Source: a virus
Lineage: Duplodnaviria; Caudoviricetes
IMG/VR virus record: IMGVR_UViG_3300044631_000780
Coordinates: 1,672 to 65,671 of that record
DNA length: 64,000 nucleotides
Direction: 5' to 3' (one strand)
In this document: piece by piece, positions 6,802-54,339 of the stretch
How the letters are laid out: every line of letters begins with the position of its first letter
How positions within the stretch are numbered: the first letter of the stretch is position 1
Position numbers and translations under genes: made by a program
The notes under the pieces: model-generated
The model's input: only the letters and a program-made list of their open reading frames with translations
Database searches by the model: none
Told to the model about the DNA's origin: nothing

Positions 6802-6826
6802 TTGGAGTTCCTTTGTGTATGAGAGT

Positions 6827-24281: not shown

Positions 24282-24929
24282 TTAGTTTCTAAAAATACTA
24301 TTTCGTTTGATCATACCCATGCGAATTAAATCAAAATTCACAAGATCTTCCCTTTCCATTGATCCTTCGATTTTATGGTAAAGTTTATTAAGTTCAACCA
24401 AATAATATCTCATTGTGGGATCAACGATTGAACTTTCCATCCAAAACGTTAAACACTTTCGGACACCTTTGGTTACTGGATTTACCCCATGAAGAAATTC
24501 GGTTGGATAAACTAGAGCTTTGCCTGGTTCCAACTTTCTTTCAATTCTTTCGGATCCAATTTTAATAAAATGCTCGCCACCTTCATAGTCATCATTTAAA
24601 TTAACAACAACTGTGTAATCTGTTCTAGTTCCCCACATTTCAAAGAAGTCACTATGATCAGCATAGTGATTGCCCTCTTCATATTTTAGCATGAGAGATG
24701 GGGAACATTTATTTAAAATGTGAATTTTTGAAATTTCAGATTCTCTAATCAATTTATGGACGGCAGCATTTACCATCTTATTGATTTCTATATTTTCCTG
24801 CTCAGAATTGTGCTTATATTCTTTGTTTTTTGGTCCAGAAATAGCACCATCAATAAACTTTCCTGAGTCAAATAGACTCAGCATTTGCCTTAGTTTATTT
24901 TTGTCCAAAAAATCATATTCATAGATCAT
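24282..24929 (-). CDS. PKHD-type (PiuC-like) 2OG-Fe(II) hydroxylase
   Basis: FIDG...YADHSD...RTD...YEGGE...HGVNPVTKGVR...WMES. Confidence 0.88.
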   Translation of the reverse strand: MIYEYDFLDKNKLRQMLSLFDSGKFIDGAISGPKNKEYKHNSEQENIEINKMVNAAVHKLIRESEISKIHILNKCSPSLMLKYEEGNHYADHSDFFEMWGTRTDYTVVVNLNDDYEGGEHFIKIGSERIERKLEPGKALVYPTEFLHGVNPVTKGVRKCLTFWMESSIVDPTMRYYLVELNKLYHKIEGSMEREDLVNFDLIRMGMIKRNSIFRN

Positions 24930-26100: not shown

Positions 26101-26721
26101 CTATGGGAGTTTTAGGAACCAGCCTGTCGCAATATATTTATCATGGGTGAAGACAGTGTTTCCACGATGAACATGTGTCATACCAGCTGGCCAAATTAAT
26201 AATGTTCCAGTTGTTGGTTTATATCTCTTTTTCTGAAAGAGAAACTCTGTCTCTGCCTCACCATCTGGCATATCATTTAGATAAATCATCCAAGCAAGTT
26301 CACGATTTGCTGCTCTAAAACTAGAGTTTTCATAATGCCATACATGATATCCACCGCCAGGGGGGGTTTTTTGTAATTTAATCCCAATCGTCTGTATGTT
26401 TATTCTTGAAATGTGATCGTATTCAGTCTTGTAGTTTTCAAAAGCAGTATTAATGTACTGATATAGATGTTGTGACAGTCTCAAATCAACATCATCAAGC
26501 ATCATTCCAACATCATTTCTTCCCAATTTTTTCTCTGCAAATTGATCTTTGCCATGCTGTAAAAATCCAGGATTTGTCGTCAAATATTTTTCAAATTGAT
26601 CTACAATTGCGGTACACAACTCATGGTGAACAAACCTATGGTAAACTCCAATAAAATCCTCATATTTTCCATTAACTTGTTCTGGATCACAAATGTGTCC
26701 ACAATCTTTACCAAGTAGCAT
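26101..26721 (-). CDS. 2OG-Fe(II) oxygenase (prolyl-hydroxylase-like)
   Basis: GYHVWHYE...YLND...ETEF...THVHRG...KYIATGW. Confidence 0.9.
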   Translation of the reverse strand: MLLGKDCGHICDPEQVNGKYEDFIGVYHRFVHHELCTAIVDQFEKYLTTNPGFLQHGKDQFAEKKLGRNDVGMMLDDVDLRLSQHLYQYINTAFENYKTEYDHISRINIQTIGIKLQKTPPGGGYHVWHYENSSFRAANRELAWMIYLNDMPDGEAETEFLFQKKRYKPTTGTLLIWPAGMTHVHRGNTVFTHDKYIATGWFLKLP

Positions 26722-42400: not shown

Positions 42401-45400
42401 CCAAACCAGAGATCCTGAGCAACAGCATCAACAATGTGACCGATATCTCTACGGCACTTGGTTTCACCAGTCAAGAATGTTCCAGCATTCTCAGCAGGAA
42501 GTGAATTGAGATTTCCAGCAGTTACAGCAGCAGTTACAATGCCAGTGAGAGTAGTGATTGCTGACTGGACGTTTGAACATGAAGATGAACTCTGATTATT
42601 GCCAGTCGCAGGATCTGCTGTGACAGTAAGATCTTTGTGGTAGAGTTGGTTTGTAATTGCTCTACGCATGAATTCAGCAGCTTCATTGAATGCTACATTG
42701 CTCTGAGCAGTTTCTCCAACTAAACCATTGCTGATTGGAGTTGTAACGTTAGTAAAATACTGCTGAATAAATGTTCTGGTGTGCTTATTACCGCCAGTGA
42801 ATAGGTCAACAGAAATGGCATCAATAAAGTATCCGATATCACGAGCACACTTTCTCATGCCAGCAGGAGCAGATCCTTTGTTGATCGTCTGTGGCATTGA
42901 ATTTAGATTGCCATCGTTAATAATTGTAGTTACGATGCCAGCAAGAGTGTCAATAGCAGAGCGAACGTTAGCACAAGAATTAGCATCAGTGTTGCTACCA
43001 GTAGCAGGATCAGCAGTAATAGTAAGATCCTTAACTGTGAGTTGGTTAGTGATAGCAAGTCTCATCAAGTTTCTTGCTTGATTGAAAGCATAGATGCTTT
43101 CTGTAACTTCACCAACTAGACCATTGCTGATTGGAGTTGTAGCATTTGAGAAATACTCAGCAGCAAATCTGTATGAATACTCGTTACCACGAATGAAAAG
43201 GTCAAGCGAGATCGCATCAACAAAGTATCCAAGGTCTCTCTTACACTTCGTTTCAGTAGAAGCAACACCAGGATACAGAGTGACCATATTGGTCCAAGCA
43301 GTATTGACAATTTCTGTCTTGTTCTGCTGAATTAGACGGTAGCTATCATAGAAACGCGAATCTGCTGTAGTTTGAGCATCGCCAGGGAAGTAGAAATCTG
43401 GATAATCAACAGCGATCTTAGCAAGTGCTCTATCAGTAATCTCTTTGCTATTGCGACGAATGAGACGGAACGCATCAGCAAAACGAGATTGTGCGTTGCT
43501 CTGAGTATCACCAGGCATGTAGAAATCTGGATGATAAACAGCAACTTCAGCAAGTGCTGCGTCAAGAATAAATTCTCTGTTAGCAAGAATACGATTACGA
43601 GCATCCTTATAACGACCAGCAGGATCTTGCTTATTTGCGGCATCAACTGTTACACCTTCACTATTCAATCCTAAAGCAGCAGATCCAGTGCTTCCTGCGA
43701 TCACACCATATGGACTTAGGATGCTAGGGTTCTCTGGATCATAAATTGCTGCTTTAACTGTAAGTAGATTAGCAACTGCTTTCTTACAAAGATCTCTTGC
43801 TCTGTTAAAAGCAAATACAGCATAGGTTTCTTCACCAACCAGACCGTTCTGTAATGGCGTACCGTCACCATTGAAGTAGAACTTGGTAGCTTCGATGGTG
43901 TTGAGGTTTCCGCCGTCTCTAAGGTCTTCTGCGATGGCATCTACAATAAATCCAATGTCACGCTTACACTTACCATTTGCAACACCTTGGATATTTCCAA
44001 TACCAAAAGTTTCAACCATTTGGTTGAATGCTGTGTCAACGATTTCTTGGCGGTTCGCAAGGATTAAGTTGCGAGCATCGAAGTAACGACCAGCAGCAGG
44101 ATTTAGACCAGGGTTGACATAAGGAATGTTTTGAAGTGCTGGATACTTCTCAAGAATATATCCAAAAACTTCCTCTTGGATCATTGTGCGATTGCTTTCA
44201 ATCAAGTTAGCAGCATCAGCGTAGATGCCATTGATTGAGATACCAGAAGGATTTAAAATTGATCCTTTCGCAATATACTTAACAAAACCAGTTGGTTCTA
44301 ATTCTACGTTAAATACTTCTCCAGTTCCAGCAGCAGGATCAAGTTTTACATATAGTTTGTCACCAGTTTTTGCTCCAAGTCTATAACCATCAATGGTCGC
44401 AGCTGGACGCTCTGTTGGAATAATAATGTCATCGCTACCCAAGAACAACTTAGTATAGTTGTTAGGATTTTGAATTGTTCCTTGAATATCAATCGTATAA
44501 TAAGTAACTTTTTTGATATTCTCAGCAGTTTCCTCTGCTTGCTGTGGTGGAATGATGTGAGTAATGTATCCACCTTTGTCTTGGTTGAACGCAAATCCTT
44601 TGAAACCAATCGCGTGTAGAGAGGTATTACCAAAGTTTGAGTTGGAGTTGGTGATGGACATGTCTCCACCACTTTCCATTAGGAAGTGATCAGCAAAACC
44701 AACGGCGAAGATGGAAACGTTCTGAATGAATGCGTCTTCTGAAGCACGAACGTGGAAGTTTCTCCACTCATCCTTCCAGTAACTATCACCCTTTGCGTGA
44801 TAAGGAACAGTAGCAAATGCGTCTGTTAGTGATGCTTGATTCCAAGTGTTTGAATACTCATCGTAACGGATGAATGCTCTATCGTCTTTCTGTAGAGAAA
44901 CACCAGTGTACTGAGCAATAACCATGGATCTAAATCCAGTGGCTTTTAGACCATTTGCCCAGATACCACAAATACCCCAGGTAGAACGAATTGAAACGTT
45001 GAAGACGTATGGAGAAGCAGATTCGACGCTATCAACCTCAGCAAGAGTTTGTGCGTTTTGTCCAAGGGCAGGAGTTGTATCTACACTGATTGTTTGTCCA
45101 GAAACAATGTTAGTGCCAATTCCACCAACAACGAATGGAACTTCATATTTAAATTTGCGAGGGTCATTCTCGTCAATCTCTTTGATTGGGAAAAATCCTT
45201 CAAGAACATCATCAATATTTGTATTTGAAATAGCAACAAATTGACCAGCAAAATATCCATGATCAACTTTAGTCGTTACTTCAACTTCAGTTGTGGATGC
45301 TGGAATGCTAGGATCAGTTGTCGCATCTACAAACTTCAGTGATTCAATAACACGAGAGTCAGATAAAGGACCAACAATTCTATTTTCTTGAATGTTGAAA

Positions 45401-46167
45401 TCAAATTCACCTGGATCATCAATTGTTGGTTGATAAGATGAAAATGCCTTAGCGATCTTTCTGTAGAATAATCCTAGCTCTTCACTATCAGCATATTCAA
45501 ATACTGTTAGTTTGTGGTGAGAGAAATTAGGAGCAGTAAGTTTGGTGAAGTCTTGAGGATCATAATAAACTTCACCAGTTCCTTCAGCAGAATTGAAAAG
45601 AGGAGATTCAGAAGTTGTTTGACCATCTTTAATAGTGAACTGCCAGAAGTAACATCCACCAGTTACATTAAAGATCGCAGAACGTGGGACAGTTACAGAA
45701 GCAGGATCAGGAACGTAGAGAGGTCTGATCGTTGTTCTACGAAGGTCATAACCAACAAGTGAAGAACCACGAGGAATAATAGCACCGCCTTCAGTGTTAT
45801 TAAACTTGTATAGTACGTTGTTTGGATTGGAGATATCAAGAATGCTATTATCAGTCCAAGCATTTAGAGCTTGATCAAATCCAAATACATCAATGCCATT
45901 AGTATCTACAAGACCAGGACGGTTATCAATATAGTGAATACCAGGCATCAGCATGATGCTGAACTGGTCAAAACGGTCATTATTCTTACCAGGAAGGTAA
46001 GAATATCTTGCGATTTCTAGGAAAGCACGCTGAATACTCTTGAATGGTGTAATTGGTGAATTACCTCTGTTGGATAACGCATCGGTTGCGTTAAAATCAT
46101 CAGGAGAAACATAAAGATACTTACCAGTTTTTGAACTGATAAGATTATCCAGACGTGTTAATGGCAT
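33433..46167 (-). CDS. giant (4244 aa) virion structural protein with six phycobiliprotein-like segments
   Basis: Late promoter upstream; N-terminal YVSP...PFKSIQRA beta-helix cap; C-terminal T4 baseplate/fibre-type LTLPSNPKTGDTIRI...GWW; CxRD repeats at about aa 650-1820. Confidence 0.85.
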   Translation of the reverse strand: MPLTRLDNLISSKTGKYLYVSPDDFNATDALSNRGNSPITPFKSIQRAFLEIARYSYLPGKNNDRFDQFSIMLMPGIHYIDNRPGLVDTNGIDVFGFDQALNAWTDNSILDISNPNNVLYKFNNTEGGAIIPRGSSLVGYDLRRTTIRPLYVPDPASVTVPRSAIFNVTGGCYFWQFTIKDGQTTSESPLFNSAEGTGEVYYDPQDFTKLTAPNFSHHKLTVFEYADSEELGLFYRKIAKAFSSYQPTIDDPGEFDFNIQENRIVGPLSDSRVIESLKFVDATTDPSIPASTTEVEVTTKVDHGYFAGQFVAISNTNIDDVLEGFFPIKEIDENDPRKFKYEVPFVVGGIGTNIVSGQTISVDTTPALGQNAQTLAEVDSVESASPYVFNVSIRSTWGICGIWANGLKATGFRSMVIAQYTGVSLQKDDRAFIRYDEYSNTWNQASLTDAFATVPYHAKGDSYWKDEWRNFHVRASEDAFIQNVSIFAVGFADHFLMESGGDMSITNSNSNFGNTSLHAIGFKGFAFNQDKGGYITHIIPPQQAEETAENIKKVTYYTIDIQGTIQNPNNYTKLFLGSDDIIIPTERPAATIDGYRLGAKTGDKLYVKLDPAAGTGEVFNVELEPTGFVKYIAKGSILNPSGISINGIYADAANLIESNRTMIQEEVFGYILEKYPALQNIPYVNPGLNPAAGRYFDARNLILANRQEIVDTAFNQMVETFGIGNIQGVANGKCKRDIGFIVDAIAEDLRDGGNLNTIEATKFYFNGDGTPLQNGLVGEETYAVFAFNRARDLCKKAVANLLTVKAAIYDPENPSILSPYGVIAGSTGSAALGLNSEGVTVDAANKQDPAGRYKDARNRILANREFILDAALAEVAVYHPDFYMPGDTQSNAQSRFADAFRLIRRNSKEITDRALAKIAVDYPDFYFPGDAQTTADSRFYDSYRLIQQNKTEIVNTAWTNMVTLYPGVASTETKCKRDLGYFVDAISLDLFIRGNEYSYRFAAEYFSNATTPISNGLVGEVTESIYAFNQARNLMRLAITNQLTVKDLTITADPATGSNTDANSCANVRSAIDTLAGIVTTIINDGNLNSMPQTINKGSAPAGMRKCARDIGYFIDAISVDLFTGGNKHTRTFIQQYFTNVTTPISNGLVGETAQSNVAFNEAAEFMRRAITNQLYHKDLTVTADPATGNNQSSSSCSNVQSAITTLTGIVTAAVTAGNLNSLPAENAGTFLTGETKCRRDIGHIVDAVAQDLWFGGNEYTIAATKEYFTNNTTLLPNGLVNEINPSITAFKRSADLMNRAINNQYYVRDLTLTLDNTEDPAFVADIHADAYNLVLDNKEFIAKEAYLRMKAAYPSYVPQTGNTEQDCLDDVYDVLEEVMWDVKFGGNSKTYDAANIYVTNIFNGQPIQTFLDAERDEAAKVFTEVKNIAIQVLRNETVTVTSGNTFTQKKDLTIVNDWDSDELLPKCGSAVGALDTLFGILLQAIGNDGGVGNLTGITRTAPAQPTTYTLGNCSDVLATVDTLVGIVCDALQAGNLNTLPPLTNGEWDCANVRSSIENLFDIVTDAIGTGSLAGLPTANAGDFIVNAKQSKCYRDVSYIVDAVVNDLRLGGNINSIQAGEAYYVGNNLTYIDGEKTETIDAWNYVGQLAIAAMRNFDVLAINCVTTTGSALVNVSDTRGIVIGMRVVEYASSPTPYVNGLLQNNAVPIYTNIPKDTFVKRIVSNTTIELGVANSRFDTGNTVNALQSSTTTRLYFTYEKGSWANTLPQRVTVGPENTNPDVIQDTQAYTPSAPTQRECADVANAITTLVGNITTIINSGLGTVTRQEQTVNTALLSSRATIFTIDITGYGATNAHNFETGTPVRLVPRPRFDVETGKYVEIDKRLIRLPKGFEPNRTYYVIAPGRRTQPADYSTTTFFNGSDQTKLMLATSKENAAAGIYIYASETDSIDPDVEIDLYQFVLDDKYTLHNYECNLTNTVNAGIETDVSHIFDVPSAATTPHRVFFRAIEGGSLPIVASTYANDPTVAVTDITNSNVGRINPQIEFFARYQNDKVFTIHKTHADAINNVNPITFASGQTSLKFDVWANKRRSPMRFDPAYTDSVSTTGKWYIQCKDQVTAQPSSVQQENIFWRINQSDYSDRPRTTDMWYERLDDTREADDRTYKIRYVIPKYLQNARDPINGFVLKTRTDDTRKLIPQKILLKPVTGSVYGARFENPVQAGEYIGYTAAQFATNGLNTDAAYDPFKKDLTGAGIEYRAFARFNSGIQATIQGGRYVTDALNSNIKYLELTVYDHTVDSKNFPGLRNEIFTTIKITAPQGGDFVTNKTQNITANQVTFTGYSSGLANIHAYYSVGGDHYLIIKNIRGGKLEYSEYDSVRFTQGSVFADMLEDQDMGKSLPLKTLIRKGYPEYYWRQNGANVYTITPGDRIQDDAGIEYYVESVEDAGIIDDTFYIFASETLQRRIAGQQDGIYYLTCLRGNISPFPTGAGVINNFKNFKFSQPVSRLYPLNYRNDPLWFKNNGTTNEEKDYYAALIDPPQAFSAADNYVHGLVTVNDYKNSVTRELVEDLISQPAFIENTYTGSNAIRAQEGNATSGSEDRLIPISGDSTVANDQRYYVELRRPSIARAGNHTFEYLGFGPGNYSTGLPARQEVVLTPEQDFYAQSKKQDAGIVFYTGINSQGDLYIGNRRINAITGQETFIDAATLQDDGDENDVIGGLVTTFDTPVTFNQNLTVVGGDGTLVSSFESPVLIAVQDNDLVQQRDVLIIRSNVSSVDPVTQLEQDQGLDRTTFRPPTAGDIRISKNKVTAAVFEFNARGNGQKYMFQTHTSSGVPANITPNQSPLVADGGTRVNSAQYVTYGGVLPVPGDVLLKGSEIGKTGSIGWILANYYQKIADNSIFTITFDGSNVVKLTFKNSQSGLDITNQDIGITSGSQIRVNNFYYDPRLNLTWVVYNKPGDAFSPTNNYVHFQVIDQIPAAVENWADIIAGTAIGATPPSVEFSNASWKEVGVIGSEALRTETESIGNYKLGINTVARSPHSAYANGFVDPTTTDPRANLDVVGKAYISGRTLSTAPNNYLSNSNPTNRTFNAISDALVVGGDSLAPTNYSTLRVDTTTVAISESGRGNNLGRLGINTNQSVTNSQLNRALVVVGDSRFTEDARFQRDIEIYTDSGTATGEVRTGITTGTFNLLNDSTFVGGDNTGGLNLAGYSKTIRIGDHTTANQWIYIGDKATNDQFIKIGNSANHSNLFIGNIDRDAAISKTKIGGAYDRLSSLSYVDFETKQVKFAGDVTFGSFKSLGGDRTNPEQVVTLSTEAGIVSFFSGNTQTMDFALNASEVRIAGQGGTTTIRNSLEIDGETIFNGNVHLCGGVAAFSFTANRAQLGTTAFAHDDGILGPTTFNQNVDLINVLQVPDSDPNFNRLDTAGSADWGSTDFQELIPGGGPEGSDLPALTGDLYYLPLLNPPGDYFREGDYLILDTVVDSVAGTHPEILRVAPGGLAGAETAPYYLTVQRRPLGTFTAVKTNHPDEPNNRTPIYKCNIAFDATWTEQSIDASGTTENVYLATFGGTLRTGVDYIVIDRTDTNSDGVFDQGEVFKLVSTLVQENKTFSILSGCPNGNVLFSVDSVTGETIIGNDGVSGENGKLTVNGSFTFVGGCKTASSQQFTGNAQAGLTTITAVTNTSGIEVGDYVQIVTGGGTVTLTQNRFPIDSGETRLTDPQVVSISGSTITLNLPFTGTGSQEGITFVANKNEKFSITDRVRDIFSVDACSGDTIVGNPSGTILAQRAKFGTSVAAHSSGATVYVILKDPKVDNSIATTFVDTVTAITTSATQLPVDDISDFANGDYILVGYGSGGNEEFMRISSNPVATSGNSGYLPVTRSPLAGTAKTHQDGESVWRVLIRETTTTTSAIGTTGGTNIEIGLKNSDLVPFFLDREYFMVIDSEVFEVTSTITNDGGTKLVKKDYHHGRLTVYDDVNFVGSNFRISGTDNNVPIINLVNNEEHHFEGGKLSINAATDVSGLFRVFPTTCVEEPDAIQFSNRSFLPTFRVEPNFGDTFVGRLLDVAGISSSIAAQSQKILDIRNLGDGGTKNFTIRQDCSVDAFGYEGWKNSNGGHITKFVNANTTLQVNINYIVAVAPSTGALVLTLPSNPKTGDTIRITEVGGQLTYNNSLVIRAPIVGGEPVAIQGDTEGTRLGGLSTPYASGELVVQNKNASFGLIYVGQTDGDNFIPATYQGWWLTEL

Positions 46168-46206
46168 GATTATACAGACCCTGCGGCGTGACTTATTCCT
46201 TCAAGT

Positions 46207-46214
46207 TATTTATA
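46207..46214 (-). promoter_or_regulatory. T4-type late promoter TATAAATA
   Basis: Exact gp55 consensus about 40 nt upstream of the giant gene. Confidence 0.85.
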
Positions 46215-46326
46215 CGGAAGGTTTATAGTTGTCTCCCTCTATCTGCATTTTGATAATTTCTCTGACACATAACCAGATATATCCAAATTGTTCAGACCAA
46301 GTACAATCACCTTTAATTTTATTCAT
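46210..46326 (-). CDS. hypothetical 38-aa protein
   Basis: Hand translation MNKIKGDCTWSEQFGYIWLCVREIIKMQIEGDNYKPSV. Confidence 0.45.
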   Translation of the reverse strand: MNKIKGDCTWSEQFGYIWLCVREIIKMQIEGDNYKPSV

Positions 46327-46342
46327 ATGTTTTTTGAAACAA

Positions 46343-46417
46343 CACTCTCTGTAGGATTCGAACCTACGACACCTTGATCCGTAGTCAAGTGCTCTATATC
46401 CACTGAGCTAAGAGAGT
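46343..46417 (-). tRNA. tRNA-Arg(ACG)
   Basis: Cloverleaf; anticodon arm CTTGA-CTACGGA-TCAAG. Confidence 0.92.
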
Positions 46418-46420
46418 AGG

Positions 46421-46492
46421 CGAAGGGTGAGAGATTCGAACTCCCATCGCAAGGTTTTGGAGACCTGCATCTTACCGTTAGACCAACCCAAC
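46421..46492 (-). tRNA. tRNA-Trp(CCA), two U-U mismatches in the acceptor stem
   Basis: Anticodon loop CTCCAAA; T-loop TTCGAAT; acceptor GTTGGGT/ACCCTTC. Confidence 0.8.
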
Positions 46493-46567
46493 TGGTTCTG
46501 AGGGTAGGATTCGAACCCACGAATGGCGGGACCAAAACCCGCTGCCTTACCGCTTGGCGACCTCAGA
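46493..46567 (-). tRNA. tRNA-Gln(TTG)
   Basis: Cloverleaf with encoded CCA. Confidence 0.93.
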
Positions 46568-46568
46568 A

Positions 46569-46642
46569 TGGGGTGACGTATGGGAATTGAACCCATCTAG
46601 GTGGTTCCACAAACCACTGCCTTACCACTAGGCTAACGTCAC
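46569..46642 (-). tRNA. tRNA-His(GTG)
   Basis: Cloverleaf; C73 and encoded CCA; position -1 is T rather than G. Confidence 0.92.
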
Positions 46643-46643
46643 A

Positions 46644-46717
46644 TAGCAGTAGGTAGATTTGAACTACCGACCATAGGCGTATGAAACCCGTGCTCTGCCA
46701 GACTGAGCTATACTGCT
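46644..46717 (-). tRNA. tRNA-Met(CAT)
   Basis: Cloverleaf; loop TTCATAC; weak anticodon stem. Confidence 0.82.
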
Positions 46718-46721
46718 AAAA

Positions 46722-46802
46722 TGGACGCTGACCTGCTGGTTACTCTTTCTGCGGAGGGAGGCGTCAGTCTTTTATATCCGAGCAAGCACCTTGCTGGAGT
46801 CC
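46722..46802 (-). ncRNA. candidate structured ncRNA A in the tRNA array
   Basis: GGAC/GTCC closing stem ending in CCA; AGCAAG/CTTGCT hairpin; CTGAC/GTCAG stem; fills a tRNA-sized slot. Confidence 0.55.
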
Positions 46803-46804
46803 TA

Positions 46805-46891
46805 CGGAAGATGTTGGATTCGAACCAACGGAAAGATTACTCCTTCGACGGTTTAGCAAACCGTTGCTTTAGACCTCTCAGCCAATCTTCC
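46805..46891 (-). tRNA. tRNA-Ser(GCT)
   Basis: Cloverleaf with long variable arm; G73. Confidence 0.93.
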
Positions 46892-46895
46892 AAAG

Positions 46896-46967
46896 TGGAA
46901 CCGACAAGATTTGAACTTGTGACCGCTCGGTTATCAGCCGAGTGCTCTACCACTGAGCTACGATTCC
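46896..46967 (-). tRNA. tRNA-Ile(GAT)
   Basis: Anticodon arm CTCGG-CTGATAA-CCGAG. Confidence 0.93.
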
Positions 46968-46970
46968 AAA

Positions 46971-47042
46971 TAGTCTCAACGGGACTTGAACCCGTGTCTA
47001 CACTGTGAAAGAGTGTTGTCCTAACCACTAGACGATGAGACC
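46971..47042 (-). tRNA. tRNA-Glu(TTC)
   Basis: Anticodon arm ACACT-CTTTCAC-AGTGT. Confidence 0.92.
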
Positions 47043-47045
47043 ATA

Positions 47046-47119
47046 CGACCCATACGGGATTCGAACCCGTGATCTCCACCGTGACAGGGTGGCGTGATAA
47101 GCCGCTACACTAATGGGTC
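47046..47119 (-). tRNA. tRNA-Asp(GTC)
   Basis: Anticodon arm CCACC-CTGTCAC-GGTGG. Confidence 0.93.
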
Positions 47120-47123
47120 AAGG

Positions 47124-47205
47124 TGGGAGGAACAGGATTTGAACCTGTGAAGGCAGAGCCGTCTGATTTACAGTCAGATTCCTTTAACCACTCGGAAATC
47201 CTCCC
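47124..47205 (-). tRNA. tRNA-Tyr(GTA)
   Basis: Anticodon arm TCTGA-CTGTAAA-TCAGA; long variable arm. Confidence 0.93.
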
Positions 47206-47209
47206 ACGA

Positions 47210-47282
47210 TGGGTCTGGTCGGGCTCGAACCGACGACTTACAGGTTAAAAGCCCGCTACTCTACCAACTGAGTTACAGACCC
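47210..47282 (-). tRNA. tRNA-Lys(TTT)
   Basis: Cloverleaf; loop CTTTTAA. Confidence 0.93.
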
Positions 47283-47293
47283 AAAGGGTTAAA

Positions 47294-47348
47294 TTGTCAA
47301 GGTGCTGGTCGGGGTGGTTCCCCTTCCGTTGATGGATGTATCATAGCA
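47294..47348 (-). promoter_or_regulatory. tRNA operon leader: extended -10 promoter, boxB-like hairpin, boxA-like GCACCTTGACAA
   Basis: TGC-TATGAT at 47340-47348; GGGG-AACCA-CCCC hairpin 47311-47323; boxA-like 12-mer 47294-47305. Confidence 0.55.
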
Positions 47349-47376
47349 AAAGGGGGCGGTTTTTGACCTGCCCCCC
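47348..47376 (-). terminator. probable rho-independent terminator
   Basis: Minus strand GGGGGGCAGGT...ACCGCCCCC followed by TTTT. Confidence 0.55.
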
Positions 47377-47408
47377 TGATAAATCTTGCTTATGTGTCAG
47401 ATGTTAGA

Positions 47409-47510
47409 TCATCGTTTCCACTTATGAGCAAGCAGGGGCGCTTGAGCGATATGCCAATAGCGGCAATCGCTTTCCATAATAATATCAATTTGCTTGCTGA
47501 AGTTAGACAT
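47409..47510 (-). CDS. hypothetical 33-aa late peptide
   Basis: Hand translation MSNFSKQIDIIMESDCRYWHIAQAPLLAHKWKR; TATAAATA at 47533-47540. Confidence 0.5.
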   Translation of the reverse strand: MSNFSKQIDIIMESDCRYWHIAQAPLLAHKWKR

Positions 47511-47553
47511 GATTTTCGACCTTTAGTGTGTTTATTTATAAGGGTTTTTGAAA

Positions 47554-47625
47554 CTGGGGCGGCGGGATTCGAACCTGCAACCGATCGGTTAACAGCCGAT
47601 AGCTCTGCCGTTGAGCTACACCCCA
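47554..47625 (-). tRNA. tRNA-Asn(GTT)
   Basis: Anticodon arm ATCGG-CTGTTAA-CCGAT. Confidence 0.92.
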
Positions 47626-47631
47626 ATGAAA

Positions 47632-47802
47632 TCAGGACTGTTGAGTGTCCATCATATATTCTACAGTATTTGCTATGTCATTCATAGCATCACGTAGATG
47701 TGGTTGTTGTCCGCTTTCTTGACGAACAATTGGTCTATGATCATCTGTGAGTGACCAGCGCCATTGTTTCATTATAGCACAGTACCACAGATTAATTTTC
47801 AT
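47632..47802 (-). CDS. conserved cyanophage hypothetical protein
   Basis: MKINLWYC..MKQWRW...; start moved from the track call. Confidence 0.7.
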   Translation of the reverse strand: MKINLWYCAIMKQWRWSLTDDHRPIVRQESGQQPHLRDAMNDIANTVEYMMDTQQS

Positions 47803-47947
47803 GTTTGAAACTTTCCAATCGAATCCAGTTGGCAAGGGCGTTAAGTTGCATTCTTTTGTCTTCAGTAAAGTCATATTTTTTATTAAAAAGATAGAACTCA
47901 ATTGCTTCAAGTGCTAATTGTCTGTCTGCTTGTGAAATGAGTGACAT
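47792..47947 (-). CDS. hypothetical protein
   Basis: MSLISQADRQLALEAIE; start moved past tRNA-Ala. Confidence 0.65.
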   Translation of the reverse strand: MSLISQADRQLALEAIEFYLFNKKYDFTEDKRMQLNALANWIRLESFKHEN

Positions 47948-47966
47948 AGTGAGTATATAGAACTCA

Positions 47967-48039
47967 TGGAGAATAGGAGACTCGAACTCCTGACAGCCTG
48001 CTTGCAAAGCAGGTGCTCTACCAACTGAGCTAATTCCCC
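47967..48039 (-). tRNA. tRNA-Ala(TGC)
   Basis: Cloverleaf with G3:U70. Confidence 0.94.
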
Positions 48040-48042
48040 TAA

Positions 48043-48131
48043 TGGTAGGAGGGGGGAGCATCACCTTAAGCCCCCCTCTTTACTTCACTTAGCCACAGAA
48101 TACTAGACCAAGGAGAGGTTTTGGTTCCTAC
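48043..48131 (-). ncRNA. candidate structured ncRNA B
   Basis: GTAGGA/TCCTAC closing stem ending in CCA; GGGGGGC/GCTCCCCCC hairpin; ACCAA/TTGGT hairpin. Confidence 0.55.
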
Positions 48132-48134
48132 ATT

Positions 48135-48196
48135 TGGGGGGATGATCGGACTTCACCCAGAAGGCAAAGTCCTTAAGACCCTGCCAAATCATCCCC
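48135..48196 (-). ncRNA. candidate structured ncRNA C
   Basis: 9-bp GGGGATGAT/ATCATCCCC stem plus unpaired CCA; internal hairpin. Confidence 0.55.
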
Positions 48197-48245
48197 TTAC
48201 GACGCTACGGAAGATACCCGTAGTAGAAGTTGGCATTACTGCCAA

Positions 48246-48319
48246 AGCCCAAGGTCGGACTTGAACCGACGACCTACGGTTTACAAAACCGTTGCTCTAT
48301 CCAGCTGAGCTACTCAGGC
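48246..48319 (-). tRNA. tRNA-Thr(TGT)
   Basis: Anticodon arm ACGGT-TTTGTAA-ACCGT; first 10 nt overlap the end of cpeT. Confidence 0.92.
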
Positions 48320-48834
48320 ATTTTTACAAATTTGAATGCTCCCCAGTCAGAACCCCAAATTTTTTCATGTGTCTCTGCGTGTAATCCACGATCAACAACA
48401 TGATATTCAGTTTTAGTAAGAGTGACTTCGTTTTGAACATAGGTTTTTATACCTTGCCAATCAACCCAGCACTCACAGGTGGAGGTTCCACCCTGGAACA
48501 TTTCAGGTCCCGTCTGTGTCATAATAATATCACATCCCTCTCGGTATGTCAAGATGTCATCTGTGATGAGTTCAAGGTTTTGACACTCAACAAATCTAGA
48601 AGCATCTTGGATTTCGTAGTTTTTGAGACGGAACTGCCCCTTCTCAACCTCTACATCAATCACAAACTGACGATATGGGTTATTTAGAAGGTAATTGTAT
48701 GCTTGTTCTCCATAGAAACGATAATCGGAAATTTTCCGATGTTGTACCCGAATATGAGCATAACGAGTAGGATGAGATTGTGCTTGCCGTTTGTTAGCAA
48801 AGGTTCCTTCAAGATATTCAAGAAACTGGTTCAT
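48310..48834 (-). CDS. cpeT: CpeT/CpcT (T-type) phycobilin lyase
   Basis: FANKRQAQSHPTRYAHI...YGEQAY...PYRQ...GCD...DRG...WGS..GAFKF. Confidence 0.92.
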   Translation of the reverse strand: MNQFLEYLEGTFANKRQAQSHPTRYAHIRVQHRKISDYRFYGEQAYNYLLNNPYRQFVIDVEVEKGQFRLKNYEIQDASRFVECQNLELITDDILTYREGCDIIMTQTGPEMFQGGTSTCECWVDWQGIKTYVQNEVTLTKTEYHVVDRGLHAETHEKIWGSDWGAFKFVKMPE

Positions 48835-49099
48835 CGGGTAAAACTTCGGGATTAACTAAATCTAACTCAAACAATACGGGGTGGCATTCTTCAGCAATCA
48901 AATAATCAGAATAACGGAAGATATCTTCCATAGTATATTCTTGATTGAGTGCTGCTTCTGCTAAGATCCACTTATCGTGTTTCTCGTTTTCTTCTAAGAT
49001 GTCAAAAGCAAATGGTATGTTCTCAATATAATACATCAGCACAGGTTCGCTGTCAACAAAGACATGCTTTCGAGTGATGGTGTATCTGAAAACTGCCAT
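48818..49099 (-). CDS. conserved cyanophage hypothetical protein
   Basis: ORF track; GTAAATA late-type promoter at 49130-49136. Confidence 0.75.
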   Translation of the reverse strand: MAVFRYTITRKHVFVDSEPVLMYYIENIPFAFDILEENEKHDKWILAEAALNQEYTMEDIFRYSDYLIAEECHPVLFELDLVNPEVLPDEPVS

Positions 49100-49143
49100 T
49101 ACATTTGATCTCTCAAAATTTCCTGTTACTATTTACACAGGAA

Positions 49144-49216
49144 TACCCGTGGTCGGATTCGAACCGACACTGGAGGGATTTTAAGTCCCCTGTCTCTGCC
49201 GTTGGACTACACGGGC
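49144..49216 (-). tRNA. tRNA-Leu(TAA), short variable loop
   Basis: Anticodon arm GGGGA-CTTAAAA-TCCCT; 5-nt variable region. Confidence 0.9.
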
Positions 49217-49220
49217 AAGG

Positions 49221-49293
49221 TGCTCCTTGAGGGGATCGAACCCACCTTAGGCGAATTATGAGTTCGCTGCATTCACCAGATTGCTAAAGGAGC
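49221..49293 (-). tRNA. tRNA with CAT anticodon (Ile2/lysidine type or Met)
   Basis: Anticodon arm GCGAA-CTCATAA-TTCGC. Confidence 0.85.
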
Positions 49294-49296
49294 GAA

Positions 49297-49368
49297 TGGG
49301 GATACTGGGAGTTGAACCCAGACTAACCCGTTATAAGCAGGCCGCTCTAACCATTAAGCTATACCCCC
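49297..49368 (-). tRNA. tRNA-Ile(TAT)
   Basis: Anticodon arm GCCTG-CTTATAA-CGGGT; A73. Confidence 0.9.
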
Positions 49369-49382
49369 ATAAAATTAGGGCA

Positions 49383-49508
49383 TCATATTCGCACTAACAG
49401 TTTTGCTTTTAATGCTTGCCTACGCTTCTTAGCATCTCTCAATGCTTGAGGCTTGAGAGAACGCTTCTGTTCTTTTTTGGAGTGGTGCTGCCAGTTCGGA
49501 ACTTTCAT
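49383..49508 (-). CDS. basic 41-aa conserved cyanophage peptide
   Basis: Hand translation MKVPNWQHHSKKEQKRSLKPQALRDAKKRRQALKAKLLVRI. Confidence 0.65.
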   Translation of the reverse strand: MKVPNWQHHSKKEQKRSLKPQALRDAKKRRQALKAKLLVRI

Positions 49509-49534
49509 CGTTCTCTCGTGTTCTGTATGTATGT

Positions 49535-49592
49535 ATAATACCCGATTATTAGGCGTTCGTCAAGGGCAGTGTGACAGTTGCTTTTCTGGCAC
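49535..49592 (-). promoter_or_regulatory. early promoter element copy 14 (palindrome 49571-49592; TTGACG-17-TATTAT)
   Basis: gtgacagtt-gctt-ttctggcac, 30-nt gap; faces the tRNA/cpeT region. Confidence 0.75.
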
Positions 49593-49678
49593 TCTGCTGG
49601 GCAATAAATGCCCGAAGCTCTGGGGTTTCTTCCCATTCCCAGGTGCGACCTTTCTTATCAATCCATTGCTTTTTAGGA

Positions 49679-49870
49679 TTACTCACTTTTCAATTCCTCC
49701 AGTTTGTCTAAAATTGTATCAAATGATCCGATGCCTTCAATCTCAGAGATCATTTTAGCGATCTGAGTACAAACAATCGGTCGTTCTTGCCTAGCAGCAT
49801 ATGCTAGAGCATTTCGTAGAGAAGCAGAAGCTTCTTTCAAGCTTTCCTCTACTGATTTTGATAGAGCCAT
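49679..49870 (-). CDS. conserved hypothetical protein
   Basis: ORF track. Confidence 0.75.
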   Translation of the reverse strand: MALSKSVEESLKEASASLRNALAYAARQERPIVCTQIAKMISEIEGIGSFDTILDKLEELKSE

Positions 49871-49921
49871 TACTCACCCGAACCTTGAACAGAGTTATCT
49901 TACTCGGTTTCTGAGGTTCTG

Positions 49922-50248
49922 TCAATCCCTCTGGCGCCAGTCTTCGGGTTTATCTCTGCCTTCAGTAAAGAAATCAACAATTTCATCAACAGAGTTGAAC
50001 CTGCTGATGCCTCTGCCTTCGTGTCCAGTCCCACCAATATCTAAGGCATTTAGAAATCCATCCATACTATCTTCAGTCATGTCTGGATTTTCTGCTCTTC
50101 GTCTTGCTTGACGAAGCATTGTCCCAGCTGTTCTATTTGCTTTTGCTAACTTTTCCGCCCATATCATCTCTTCCAAACTCACTTCTTGATGTGCTATAAT
50201 TTTGTCACAGATCGCTTCCAAACGAAGACGATATTGCGTAGAAAGCAT
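49922..50248 (-). CDS. conserved cyanophage hypothetical protein (MLSTQYRLRL)
   Basis: ORF track; CTAAATA at 50272-50278. Confidence 0.8.
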   Translation of the reverse strand: MLSTQYRLRLEAICDKIIAHQEVSLEEMIWAEKLAKANRTAGTMLRQARRRAENPDMTEDSMDGFLNALDIGGTGHEGRGISRFNSVDEIVDFFTEGRDKPEDWRQRD

Positions 50249-50274
50249 AAAGACCCTTTCACAACTACGTTTAT

Positions 50275-51447
50275 TTAGTTTAGGAGAATAAGAGCACCCT
50301 TAATACTGACATTTCCAGCACCAACAATATCAACAGTAGCACCAGCTTTGAAACTTGCTGCTGCTCCAGCTTCAATATTTACTGCTGCTCCTGCCTTCAT
50401 GTCAATTGTAGCTCCAGAAGTTTGATCAATAGATCCACCAGCTTTGATTGACATAGCGCCAGTTGCCAGAATATCAAATGTAGCACCAGCATCATCCATA
50501 ATTGCCGCAACTGCCTTTCTATTAATAAAGTCAGCAGAATCATATGTTTGACCGCCAACAGCAGTCTTTACAGAATAAGCACTATCTCTTGCTTTAATCA
50601 AAGGTGGAACTGGAGTGCCACCAGCAACAATATGTTGCTCCGCTCCACCAATCCATTGTTGATAATCTCCAAGAATTTTCCAGTTTACATGTCCTGGAGA
50701 AACCCAGTTTGCGGAAGCACGAGGATCAAAAGAAATCGTAGTATCTTCAGATACTCCAAATTTCATAACTTGTCCAAGAACAATATCTTTTTTATTAGCA
50801 GTAGTTTGTTCAACATTTCCAGCAAATAACTGAATTGTACCAGTTCCATTGTTAGCAGCGAGAACTATGTTTTGACCAGATAAGTAGAGTTCTGTTGCTG
50901 CTGTAATAAAAATCTTTTCTGCTTTTATTGTTCTTTGCGATCCTTTAGCATCTTCTGTAACATCACCATACGCTATAATATTAACAGCACATTTTTCGGA
51001 ATCATCACCAGCAGAATATTCAAAGTTAGATCTTCCCTCATGTTTCTGTTGTTGACCACCATAGGTATGAACATTTAATTTACCACTACCAGCACCAACT
51101 TGTTTACTATATTTTCCAGAAACAATATGAATTGTGCCTTGATTTCCGAGAGCGAAAAAACTATCCCCAGGACCATCTATTCTAAGTGTTGATGTAATGC
51201 CATCTGGATACAATCTTTCATAAATGTGAGATCTTCCTAAAGAAGATTTCCAGCAAGTTAAAATTCTTGGAGTTTCTGATAATGTTTGAGTTTCATTTGG
51301 TGTAGATGGTTTTGCTGGTCCTTTTGTAGTTAAATTATTATACGTTGATTTTGAAGCAGATTTCTGCTTTGTCAAATTTTCTATTTTTGCGTTTCCCCTT
51401 GGATCATAACCACCTCTTAATGATGGATCTTCTCTATTTCCTGCCAT
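50275..51447 (-). CDS. baseplate spike gp5 C-terminal (beta-helix) part
   Basis: 8-residue beta-helix repeats; ends IKGALILLN; follows the gp5 N-terminal gene. Confidence 0.75.
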   Translation of the reverse strand: MAGNREDPSLRGGYDPRGNAKIENLTKQKSASKSTYNNLTTKGPAKPSTPNETQTLSETPRILTCWKSSLGRSHIYERLYPDGITSTLRIDGPGDSFFALGNQGTIHIVSGKYSKQVGAGSGKLNVHTYGGQQQKHEGRSNFEYSAGDDSEKCAVNIIAYGDVTEDAKGSQRTIKAEKIFITAATELYLSGQNIVLAANNGTGTIQLFAGNVEQTTANKKDIVLGQVMKFGVSEDTTISFDPRASANWVSPGHVNWKILGDYQQWIGGAEQHIVAGGTPVPPLIKARDSAYSVKTAVGGQTYDSADFINRKAVAAIMDDAGATFDILATGAMSIKAGGSIDQTSGATIDMKAGAAVNIEAGAAASFKAGATVDIVGAGNVSIKGALILLN

Positions 51448-51459
51448 AATTTACAACTC

Positions 51460-54339
51460 CTATGGACAATCAACGTAACGACCAGTTCCGATCTTAGTAG
51501 AACCAACAGTTGTAAGATCATTAGTATCTAGACATACTAATGATGGCAATAATTTAGCTCCATATCCACCGCCACCGACAACAATAATTTCTGGAAATTT
51601 ATCAAAAGTTTTAGTACGATCCAATATCCTTCCACCTATTACAAATCCATCTTCATTAATGATTGCTTCTGCGATTCCAAGTTTTCCATTAACATACATA
51701 TCTGGAACTGTTGTATATCCGATTCCTGGTCGGATCAATGTAAAACTATCTATGATACAACGGACATCGTTTTCCTGTGCTAGATTCTTTCTATAACCAT
51801 ACCCAGATGATTTGACACGAATCTCGGTTAGATAACCGTTTTCGTCTAGAAGAGCAGTTGCTGTTGCTCCAATTCCTTCTCCACCAACAAATACATATGG
51901 AGGTTCTGCCCATGGATCTCCAGGATTATCAATTGGAATTTGAATAATTCCTCCAGTATCGTCAGTAATAATTTTATCTGGATTTACAGTAGGCAATTCA
52001 AATTCATCATATGTCGTTTGTGTTCCATCACCAACTCCAATATCATATTCTTCAATGGATGATCCACCACCTTCTTTATTTGAATCTGGTACAATCAAAA
52101 CACTAGTCGTTGCTCCAGTGCCATTAATAGAAAATGTTAATGTTTCATAGTCTTCTGGTCTATCATCTTCTTCAATTCCAATTGTGACCTTTGCTGTGCT
52201 ATTATTGATAATGAAAGATCCTACTAAACTGCCACCAACAACATCATCATTGGAGACACCACTTAAGGTATAAAAGGCAGCAGTTCCATTGGGAACATTT
52301 TTTGTTGTAATTGTGAACACAACAAATTCTCCCTCTTTTACTGTAGATCTATCAGCAATAACTTTATATGAAGGGGAAGAAAAACTCTTTTTTTGACCTG
52401 GATTTCCACCAGTGTTTGTATCTTCATCACCAGTTTCTTCACCAACTAACGAAGTTGGAAAATTATTATCAATATTATCAAATGGATTGATTGGTTTTGG
52501 ATTAAATCTATCTCCTTCTTCAGTTAGATCAATTTCTGTAATGACGCACTTTCCAATATTTTTAATAAATTCCGAAGATACACCACTTCCACTACCAGGA
52601 CTGTTTAGAGCAAGTTCTACAAAAAAGTCCTCATCCTTTTCAACAGCATCAGAATAGAAAGTTTTGAAAGTTATTTTCTTTTGAGTTTCTCCAGGAGCAA
52701 ATCCGAGAATGTCTTCTGCTGGTAGATAATCAGAATTTGCTGTCGCTGTACCTTGCTCTGTTAAAGATTTAAATGTTACGGAAGAAGCTGCTGATGTATA
52801 TCCAGATCTAGTTACTGTAAATATAGCGTCTTTTCCTTCTTCTACTTGAATGTCATCAATTGTGTAGATAATTTTTAACTTTTCTGTGGAAGATCCAGTT
52901 CCACCAGGAAGAGGAATTCCGCCAGTAAATCCAACAGTGGTAACTGCTAAACTATTTCCAGTATAGGCTTCTTCGCATGTGTATGATGTGTAATCAGCTC
53001 CAGTGACTGGGAATAGATTATCAATTCCAGAAAGTAAATCATCGAGAAAATCCTTTCCATCATCAGATGATTCATCCCTACTTCCATCTGTACAAACTTT
53101 TTTATATTCCGAACAGGTTTGGTCTGGTCCAGAACAAGAAATTCCTAGTAAAGATAAAACATAATTAATTGCTCCACCAATGATATTCAATGGTCCAGCA
53201 ATAGCACCAAGGATATCTTCTAGTGGACCCAAAATATTACCAAGTAATTCTTCTATCAAAGAATTAATTTTAGATAATATGCCATTAACTAAAGTATCAA
53301 TTTGACAAGCAACTGCCTGATAAATCTGTGTGACAAGATCCATCAAAACATTTGTTAACCATTCTGCCAAGCGATCTCCAAGATCTGCCATTTGACATCC
53401 AAGGTCTTTCAATAATTTATTAAAAAACTCAGTAACTGGGGTTAAGGCATTACCTTCTTCTGATGGGTATAGTAAAGCATTAATTAGATCCCTAACAGCA
53501 GCTTCTAATTTTTCAATGATAAATCCTTTAACTTTTGCGATAAAATGCTGTACGACAAATAAAATTTTATTTGTATATCTTCTAGCTTCTTCTACAGCAC
53601 TGTATAGTCCACCAGTATATTTGTTTATTAAAAAATCTCCTATTTGCCCACCATTATTTTGAACTGCTGCCAATAGTTCTGAAAGAATATACTTAATCGA
53701 AGATCCAAGATCATCTTTCTCACATTTTTCTGCTACAGATTGACACCACTTCTCTTCTTCATCTCCTTGTGCTGGACCTTGGGGAATAGGAACTCTTGGT
53801 TTTCCATCTTTACCTAAAGAACCATCTGGCAATCCACCTGTGCTTTGATTTGTATTCTCAGATTGTCCGCCTTCTTTATTTTCTGGTGCTGGAGTACCAT
53901 CCTTTGCTGGTTGAACAGTCGCTGGTATTGCTGTAGTAAATGGTGGGTCTTCTGGTCTGGCGTTTTTAACAATTGTTGTGGCACCAGGGGTTTGACCAAT
54001 TGACCCCATTATTATCGGTTTTTGTCTTTCTGGATCTAAGTAAAATCCAACAACCCAACATCCAGGTTTTAATTGAGAACCTGCTCCGCCTTCGTTCCCA
54101 GGCATAAAGGGAACGTTAACTGGCATCATCACACTACACCATGGTAAATCAGCAGTGTCAAGTATTTCTTTGCTTTGAGGATGTTCGCCAACAATCCTCA
54201 CCTTATAACGAATTCCACCTTTGTTATTAGGTTCGTCTGCTGCTGTTCCTTCTACTTGACCAACCCACCAATTAAAACCATCATTACCAATTTTATTTGT
54301 TGGGATGAGTTGAGATAATAGTTGATCCATATCACTCAA
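51460..54339 (-). CDS. gp5: baseplate hub gp5 (OB-fold N-terminus) with Calx-beta-like domains
   Basis: FNWWVGQVE...RYKVRIVGEH...DLPW...WVVGFYLD...QKPIIMG; GTATANSDY...FAPGETQK. Confidence 0.88.
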   Translation of the reverse strand: MSDMDQLLSQLIPTNKIGNDGFNWWVGQVEGTAADEPNNKGGIRYKVRIVGEHPQSKEILDTADLPWCSVMMPVNVPFMPGNEGGAGSQLKPGCWVVGFYLDPERQKPIIMGSIGQTPGATTIVKNARPEDPPFTTAIPATVQPAKDGTPAPENKEGGQSENTNQSTGGLPDGSLGKDGKPRVPIPQGPAQGDEEEKWCQSVAEKCEKDDLGSSIKYILSELLAAVQNNGGQIGDFLINKYTGGLYSAVEEARRYTNKILFVVQHFIAKVKGFIIEKLEAAVRDLINALLYPSEEGNALTPVTEFFNKLLKDLGCQMADLGDRLAEWLTNVLMDLVTQIYQAVACQIDTLVNGILSKINSLIEELLGNILGPLEDILGAIAGPLNIIGGAINYVLSLLGISCSGPDQTCSEYKKVCTDGSRDESSDDGKDFLDDLLSGIDNLFPVTGADYTSYTCEEAYTGNSLAVTTVGFTGGIPLPGGTGSSTEKLKIIYTIDDIQVEEGKDAIFTVTRSGYTSAASSVTFKSLTEQGTATANSDYLPAEDILGFAPGETQKKITFKTFYSDAVEKDEDFFVELALNSPGSGSGVSSEFIKNIGKCVITEIDLTEEGDRFNPKPINPFDNIDNNFPTSLVGEETGDEDTNTGGNPGQKKSFSSPSYKVIADRSTVKEGEFVVFTITTKNVPNGTAAFYTLSGVSNDDVVGGSLVGSFIINNSTAKVTIGIEEDDRPEDYETLTFSINGTGATTSVLIVPDSNKEGGGSSIEEYDIGVGDGTQTTYDEFELPTVNPDKIITDDTGGIIQIPIDNPGDPWAEPPYVFVGGEGIGATATALLDENGYLTEIRVKSSGYGYRKNLAQENDVRCIIDSFTLIRPGIGYTTVPDMYVNGKLGIAEAIINEDGFVIGGRILDRTKTFDKFPEIIVVGGGGYGAKLLPSLVCLDTNDLTTVGSTKIGTGRYVDCP

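Follow-up and report, generated by a model that had tools for sequence, protein, structure and literature searches.

We studied the cpeT gene of a T4-like cyanomyovirus in a stretch of 64,000 nucleotides (nt) of the IMG/VR virus record IMGVR_UViG_3300044631_000780 (hereafter the window), part of a 65.7-kb fragment with an estimated completeness of 34% whose nearest named relatives are S-RSM4, S-H9-1 and S-WAM2. The gene encodes a full-length T-type phycobiliprotein lyase and stands upstream, on the same (minus) strand, of a gene for a giant tail-fibre-like virion protein with six tandem phycobiliprotein-like units. We tentatively favour, at a little under an even chance, the reading that cpeT is a lyase gene derived from the host and located in a variable island, that its acceptors are of the host type and that its closeness to the fibre gene is positional. 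This reading is preferred because T-type lyases serve beta-Cys153 of phycocyanin (2023 review, PMC10452541) while the units carry a Cys84-type site, and because phage cpeT/cpcT genes cluster with picocyanobacterial genes (PMC10665884). It is further preferred because in the cyanophage P-HM2 the same slot precedes fibre genes without units, and in 21 of the 25 cpeT-bearing genomes that we scored the distance between cpeT and the units is 30 kb or more; because cpeT of P-HM2 is a middle gene with late flanks, and the giant gene of the window has a late-promoter motif of its own; and because the phages B23 and ACG-2014f keep the C-x-R-D motif of the units without a match to PF06206, the family of T-type lyases.

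In this reading, cpeT is a genuine T-type bilin lyase gene of host origin, and its product is probably active. The gene is housed in a variable island, rich in tRNA genes, that has been inserted between two late structural modules, with the baseplate hub upstream and the tail fibres downstream. Its transcription is most likely separate from that of the giant gene, since the latter is preceded by a late-promoter consensus. As with other auxiliary metabolic genes, the product would most likely act in mid-infection, its targets being bilins and the Cys153/155-type site of beta subunits of host phycobiliproteins; for the phage of the window, we infer both this timing and this target. On this view cpeT stands close to the giant gene because a place directly ahead of the fibre module is common to the family, the first fibre gene in the lineage of the window merely happening to bear units. 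If so, cpeT would be an ordinary auxiliary gene in a variable island, and the pigment-protein-like repeats would be a separate curiosity.

The lyase gene and its expression

The cpeT product matches PF06206 with an E value of 2.2e-42 (145.4 bits against a cut-off of 21), its residues 4-171 covering profile positions 2-181 of 181, and it also matches PHROG 488, 'CpeT-like antenna protein'. It belongs, at full length, to the same family as the cyanobacterial CpcT and CpeT. Compared with solved structures, it aligns over residues 7-172 with residues 13-187 of CpcT from Nostoc (4o4o; E 2e-22), for which activity has been shown, and less completely with the phage 'antenna protein' 5hi8 (E 8.4e-15), the solved form of the short CpeT of P-HM1/P-HM2. 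Across 29 long-type CpeT sequences, with identities down to 44%, 31 columns are invariant, which speaks for conservation of a catalytic or binding surface. The short phage forms are open frames of 134-161 amino acids in which part of the full-length fold is missing, and in 20 of the 21 short-type cpeT records tested the Pfam match was partial or broken into two pieces. The CpeT proteins of P-HM1 and P-HM2 (134-135 amino acids) are members of the same family encoded in the same slot, after the gp5 hub genes and before fibre genes, but their good alignment to the window protein is limited to residues 2-62 of the latter.

The phage gene differs from host CpcT/CpeT genes in that it comes without the other genes of the cpeESTR operon (PMC3037559), and whereas host T-type lyases serve a beta-153/155-type site, the sites that the phage itself encodes are of the Cys84 type only. 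cpeT was found in 12 of 16 T4-like cyanophage genomes and treated as a sporadic 'host' gene (Sullivan et al. 2010, PMC3037559); the window gene resembles the auxiliary-gene islands described in the same source in that it is likewise placed, together with tRNAs and small open reading frames (ORFs), between conserved structural modules. It has been suggested that cpeT may aid light harvesting (PMC10452541), and cyanophages of cluster C have an S-type lyase instead (PMC10665884).

An earlier, sequence-only reading of the window had placed cpeT about 2.1 kb upstream of the giant gene on the same strand, and this was borne out: the gap measures 2,142 nt and holds 14 tRNA genes and small ORFs, at least one of which is conserved. 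Both promoter-like motifs named in that reading were also recovered. GTAAATA, which is the T4-type late consensus minus one base, occupies a 43-nt spacer between a tRNA-Leu gene and the ORF that overlaps cpeT, and TATAAATA stands before the giant gene. The latter motif is not enriched: it occurs twice in the window, where chance alone would give 3.0 matches, so that only its position supports a promoter role. Its second copy (47533-47540, minus) is found within the tRNA array and precedes by 22 nt the ATG of an ORF of 33 amino acids (47409-47510, minus) without a PHROG match, and could mark a tiny late gene, serve as a late promoter for the downstream tRNAs or be due to chance. Scans of positions 46000-50400 for sigma-70 promoters (9 against 7.1) and terminators (5 against 3.4) remained at chance level.

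The evidence on timing is a single expression data set, that of P-HM2 on its host Prochlorococcus MED4 (PMC5082946, S2 Table), in which cpeT (PHM2_031) and the upstream genes PHM2_028-030 are classed as 'Mid' and both the flanking runs (014-027 and 032-037) and the unit-bearing g7 (PHM2_086) as 'Late'. In the P-HM2 genome (NC_015284.1), PHM2_028-031 (6727-8267 of the P-HM2 locus L086) form a four-gene middle-class island (a hypothetical gene, an acyl carrier protein-like gene, endonuclease V and cpeT) that breaks a run of late structural genes. A transcription unit or a timing common to cpeT and the giant gene was not found: the 14 tRNAs and a separate TATAAATA intervene in the window, and cpeT of P-HM2 is middle versus late for g7 and the neighbouring fibre genes. 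The middle timing disfavours the proposal of a late maturation gene, but it does not contradict an enzyme-substrate relation between CpeT and the virion protein, because a middle enzyme could persist while late proteins fold.

Phycobiliprotein-like units of the giant fibre protein

Homologues of the giant gene are annotated as short tail fibre genes in S-RSM4 and in ACG-2014e/i/j. The protein of the window matches PF00502 with 34.5 bits (cut-off 22.2), over profile positions 55-106 of 155 only, and a scan of its own genome for units gave six strong and four partial matches. Each of the six units contains one cysteine motif, which is C-x-R-D at Cys 734, 975, 1107, 1238 and 1593 and C-L-D-D at 1368. 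In the phmmer alignment, 'RKCARDIGYFIDAISVDLFTGGN' is paired with 'KCARDIGYY...GG' around Cys84 of phycocyanin alpha. We built a profile, A2, from 78 units, comprising the six of the window and 72 representatives (at most 70% identity) of 206 near-full copies in related loci. Searched against PDB, A2 matched 97 sequences at E <= 1, and the best 60 of the 97 were all phycobiliproteins or a derived fluorescent protein. The best match was CpcA (E 5.7e-6), with profile positions 20-83 corresponding to CpcA 41-104, and beta subunits were matched over residues 32-100, i.e., in the Cys82/84 region. Together, the sequence alignments covered residues 32-105 of the phycobiliproteins, and among the phmmer and A2 alignments listed no best-stretch range reached the beta-153/155 region. 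The description of the six sites as Cys155-like in the sequence-only reading has therefore to be given up: HMMER places them at Cys84, in helix E.

The AlphaFold model of one unit shows four helices in 132 amino acids, with a predicted local distance difference test score (pLDDT) of 78. Foldseek returned no match of this model to PDB at E <= 0.001. In a wide VIA structural search 7 of the 12 top rows were bilin-binding globins (photocobilin protein, ApcE domains and allophycocyanins), with Z scores of only 5.1-5.8, a range common for helical proteins; the predicted model thus lends weak support to the fold and does not prove it. The globin rows align to model residues 50-132, mostly ending near residue 145 of the globins, and the model stretch also corresponds to residues 71-145 of PF00502 proteins (4xxi_A, Z 5.6; 8or7_A, Z 5.4). 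Helices B and E, with Lys-Cys84-x-Arg86-Asp87, are common to the units and to the alpha subunits of phycocyanin and allophycocyanin and the ApcE bilin domain, all three of PF00502. However, the phage units have about 125 amino acids and four helices and are arranged in tandem in a virion fibre, whereas complete phycobiliproteins have 160-175 amino acids and the helices X, Y, A, B, E, F, G and H; in the units we saw nothing that corresponds to helices X, Y, A and H or to the G-H loop. A unit thus looks like a truncated phycobiliprotein that has kept helices B, E, F and G and has no counterpart of the G-H loop carrying beta-Cys155.

A second cysteine occurs at column 23 of the profile, at the start of the first helix ('CANVRSAI'; Cys1065, 1197 and 1550 in the window, at about 41500-43000), in 33 of the 72 non-redundant units, and in 32 of these 33 it is accompanied by Cys63, the Cys84-type cysteine. 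Column 23 falls in the part aligned with helix B, and as far as the sequences indicate the two cysteines could form a disulfide or provide a second linkage site.

Distribution of cpeT and the units, and possible acceptors of the bilin

When 31 genomes were scored with PF06206 and A2, 25 had both cpeT and units, 4 had neither, 2 had units without cpeT and none had cpeT without units. Both features were present in P-HM2, S-PM2, S-RIM2, ACG-2014d, S-RIM12, S-ShM2, Syn2, S-SM1, P-SSM7, P-RSM1, P-TIM40, S-CAM22, S-RIM8, ACG-2014a, S-H25, S-P4, S-TIM4, P-SSM4, P-HM1, P-RSM4, Syn9, S-SSM5, Syn1 and two near-complete IMG/VR contigs, and both were absent from the whole genomes of P-SSM2, S-SM2, S-SSM7 and S-CRM01. 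False negatives of a faster first scan were rejected as an explanation for the absence of units, since unfiltered HMMER runs with two unit profiles over the whole genomes gave best E values of 1.8 or worse, and B23 yielded six unit matches in the same run; the best E value of a long-type CpeT profile in the four double-negative genomes was 0.85. The sample is not random: 18 genomes were chosen since tblastn had already shown units in them, six cpeT-bearing and three cpeT-less genomes came from Table 3 of Sullivan et al. 2010, S-CRM01 was added as an outlier and ACG-2014f from the gp48 list, and the two contigs were taken from cpeT loci. In the a-priori panel, the 16 genomes of that Table 3, 14 were tested directly (11 with both, 3 with neither), and the remaining two species, represented by the same-species proxies Syn2 and S-RIM12, had both features in each case. 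Syn1 is listed there without the gene cluster; its record carries a frame of 187 amino acids that matches PF06206 with E 1.5e-35.

The two genomes with units and no PF06206 match are B23 (MN695335.1, 206.3-208.7 kb) and ACG-2014f (KJ019052.1, 180.7 and 189.5 kb). The motif is intact in both, of the K-C-K-R-D type in five of five full units of B23 and as Q-C-K-R-D and K-C-A-R-D in the two units of ACG-2014f, so the cysteine, whatever its role, can be retained in the absence of cpeT. An S-type lyase (PF09367) was found in none of five cpeT-less genomes tested (B23 included, ACG-2014f left out), which rules out a replacement lyase of this type as an explanation for B23. The units of B23 are very close to those of the window (E down to 7e-40), yet its gp48 is sister to that of the unit-less S-SM2, which suggests a transferred fibre module. 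In the giant proteins of phages with a short cpeT, Cys and Asp are kept and Arg is often replaced (N-C-E-D-D, R-C-K-T-D, D-C-I-D-D), a poor fit to canonical propionate binding. We also considered whether the type of lyase, long or short, co-varies with the unit motif; no clean pattern emerged, and P-HM2, whose lyase is the shortest, has K-C-A-R-D.

A gp48 tree for the window plus 28 genomes of this set, made by a quick method and with several long branches, placed S-SSM7, P-SSM2, S-CRM01, S-SM2 and B23 in one unresolved part, together with the clade of the window, S-PM2 and Syn1, and B23 as sister to S-SM2 with a support of 97. On this tree the absence of cpeT requires one change and that of the units two; with a single independent contrast, no test can reach significance. 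The co-occurrence that the sequence-only reading had proposed as a test holds as a count (29 of 31 genomes concordant), and a distribution of cpeT uncorrelated with the domains did not arise, but it is weakened by the one contrast and by the two genomes with units and no cpeT. Collection-wide, 353 records contain units, 86 a long cpeT and 249 a short cpeT (a list that overlaps the long one), and 452 cyanophage-named records contain gp48; these margins give no joint distribution, and nothing firm was drawn from them. A co-distribution of cpeT with a phage phycobiliprotein-like domain family was not found in the literature searched.

The adjacency of cpeT and the units is confined to the long-cpeT clade. 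Synteny was examined in 80 IMG/VR loci with CpeT relatives of 43-94% identity, in which the spacer between cpeT and the giant gene holds 0-10 tRNAs (at least one in 60 of 66 loci); S-PM2 and Syn1 share the arrangement of the window. The units that are at least 30 kb away from cpeT lie within giants of mostly 3,700-7,400-amino-acid open frames. In P-HM2, a cpeT of 135 amino acids occupies the same slot after gp5, none of the next genes, which encode a YadA-domain protein and fibre proteins, contains units, and the units are found in gp7 (54.7-57.4 kb) and in an ORF of 3682 amino acids (82.6-83.8 kb), 34-62 kb from cpeT. On the 96%-complete IMG/VR contig behind locus L006 (G001), the cpeT-adjacent units at 10.3-13.3 kb fall in open frames of 693 and 967 amino acids; the giant gene may be split or frameshifted there, or the assembly may be at fault.

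Several of our results weigh against a lyase directed at the host. All 25 cpeT-bearing genomes have units, and four of the six cpeT-less genomes are without them. In all 58 of the sampled loci with at least 2.5 kb downstream of a long-type cpeT, the N-terminus of the giant gene follows on the same strand after 253-2209 nt (median 921), and a single locus with 2.3-2.5 kb downstream (L056) showed no giant gene. The helix-E residues are among the best-conserved columns of the 72 non-redundant units (Lys62 in 57, Cys63 in 65, Arg65 in 58 and Asp66 in 69). Gasper and co-workers are said to have found in 2017 that the P-HM1 protein binds phycoerythrobilin tightly, in a stable fluorescent complex, without transfer to a host beta subunit. 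The target of cyanophage cpeT had been regarded as open in the sequence-only reading, and the passage on cpeT in Sullivan et al. 2010 (PMC3037559) also terms its role unresolved. CpeT could instead attach, or chaperone the attachment of, bilin to the Cys84-type cysteines of the phage's own fibre or baseplate units while these fold in the cytoplasm; the bilin would come from the host or, in some phages, from phage ho1/pebS/pcyA, and the virion would then be pigmented. We regard this as possible though doubtful, and it stays a serious rival because cpeT never occurs without units and the attachment motif is conserved. The asymmetry among the concordant genomes fits an enzyme that needs its substrate, the a-priori panel with its two proxies gives the same picture, the units are true phycobiliprotein relatives with bilin-binding globins prominent in the wide structural search, the synteny is kept in the long-cpeT clade, and the role left unsettled in PMC3037559 leaves room for such a target. 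Against it, T-type lyases are known for the beta-153/155-type site only and not for Cys84 (PMC10452541), the phylogenetic control leaves the single contrast, two lineages retain C-x-R-D units without cpeT, many distant units have lost the Arg (C-E-D-D, C-K-T-D, C-I-D-D), and cpeT of P-HM2 is middle, not late. The unit is moreover a truncated four-helix form with no significant Foldseek match and a best wide-search Z of 5.8, and our literature searches gave no report of pigmented cyanophage particles and no published link of cyanophage virion proteins with bilins or PF00502. The proposal that the six sites are the substrate of CpeT is in this way partly supported, by the co-distribution, and partly not, given the Cys84-type sites, the one contrast and the clade-limited adjacency.

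A further explanation, which we consider improbable, is that CpeT binds free phycoerythrobilin or phycocyanobilin that is released or made in excess in infected cells. It would buffer or deliver this bilin but transfer it covalently neither to host subunits nor to the units, and the unit cysteine would have some other role, for instance a structural, redox or metal role in the extracellular fibre. The short phage forms, without part of the full-length fold, would suit such a function, and the column-23 cysteine that accompanies Cys63 in 32 of the 72 units could point to a disulfide. However, the window gene is of the full-length type and aligns throughout with the active lyase CpcT 4o4o, its long-type relatives keep 31 invariant columns down to 44% identity, and a mere holder of bilins leaves unexplained that cpeT never occurs without units.

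The question of the acceptor could bear on light-dependent adsorption. Darkness prevents the adsorption of P-HM1 and P-HM2 but not that of P-SSM2 (Liu et al. 2019, PMC6628666); a light dependence of S-PM2 is cited likewise in that source, which gives the mechanism as unknown. The pattern parallels the two features, P-HM1, P-HM2 and S-PM2 having both cpeT and units and P-SSM2 neither, in three lineages at most. Pigmenting of the virion by a phage lyase is plausible in itself; that CpeT loads bilins covalently onto the tandem, truncated phycobiliprotein-like domains of giant fibre and baseplate proteins of cyanomyoviruses is nevertheless, in our judgement, unlikely, and the whole chain, in which a virion pigment loaded by CpeT would make the adsorption apparatus light-sensitive, is very improbable. 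Ever since the first genomes of cyanomyoviruses, phage cpeT has been listed as a gene that helps the host antenna, and a loading of the phage's own units, if true, would explain why a host target has never been found. A 'metabolic' gene would then turn out to serve virion maturation, a chromophore would be present on virus particles, and the puzzle of light-dependent cyanophage adsorption (PMC6628666) would become directly testable.

Gene order and neighbouring features

The minus-strand order runs from tail tube and baseplate hub genes through the gp5-type hub/lysozyme gene, a second hub gene, small conserved ORFs, three tRNAs, the phrog_4134 ORF, cpeT and 14 tRNAs to the giant gene, which is followed by further fibre, collar and fibre-chaperone genes (Table 1).

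Table 1. Positions in the window of cpeT, the giant gene and the features around them
Feature	Position	Strand	Basis
Giant tail-fibre-like virion gene, 4244 amino acids	33433-46167	minus	phrog_4527 'short tail fiber' (4808 bits), phrog_529, others
Six tandem phycobiliprotein-like units, about 125 amino acids each (residues 672-1655 of the giant protein)	41203-44154	minus	PF00502
TATAAATA, late-promoter consensus of the T4 type, about 40 nt ahead of the giant ATG	46207-46214	minus	read from sequence
Array of 14 tRNA genes in the gap between cpeT and the giant gene	46342-48319	minus	ARAGORN
Small conserved phage ORF inside the tRNA array	47632-47910	minus	phrog_2818, E 1.4e-26
cpeT, full-length T-type phycobiliprotein lyase gene, 174 amino acids	48310-48834	minus	PF06206, phrog_488
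Conserved phage ORF of 93 amino acids, overlapping the cpeT start by 17 nt	48818-49099	minus	phrog_4134, E 6.3e-40
GTAAATA, imperfect late-promoter-like heptamer, 30 nt before ORF 48818-49099	49130-49136	minus	read from sequence
Three tRNA genes (Leu-taa, Met-cat, Ile-tat) upstream of the cpeT pair	49143-49369	minus	ARAGORN
tRNA-Leu	49143-49217	minus	ARAGORN
Second hub gene	50275-51447	minus	
gp5-type hub/lysozyme gene	51460-54339	minus	

The ORF that overlaps the start of cpeT matched no Pfam family, and S-PM2p216 is the S-PM2 ORF in the equivalent overlapping position. A scan of nine small ORFs included seven of the gap, one of which had a phage-family match (47632-47910); the true gene there probably has about 56 amino acids, because only residues 37-90 of the frame match phrog_2818. 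The 17 tRNA genes, all on the minus strand, form two blocks on either side of the cpeT pair (46342-49369), and a megablast search with this region also matched tRNA regions of Aeromonas, Erwinia, Vibrio and Gordonia phages. Among the fibre, collar and fibre-chaperone genes downstream of the giant gene, three genes for 2-oxoglutarate-Fe(II) (2OG-Fe(II)) oxygenases are interspersed (22859-23383, 24282-24929 and 26101-26721, minus), and S-PM2 has one 2OG-Fe(II) oxygenase gene between cpeT and the giant gene. Finally, an ORF of 210 amino acids (3873-4505, minus) has a match (E 8.7e-51) to a PHROG of the auxiliary-gene category that bears the label 'ferredoxin' and matches no Pfam family, and is longer than a plain ferredoxin would be.

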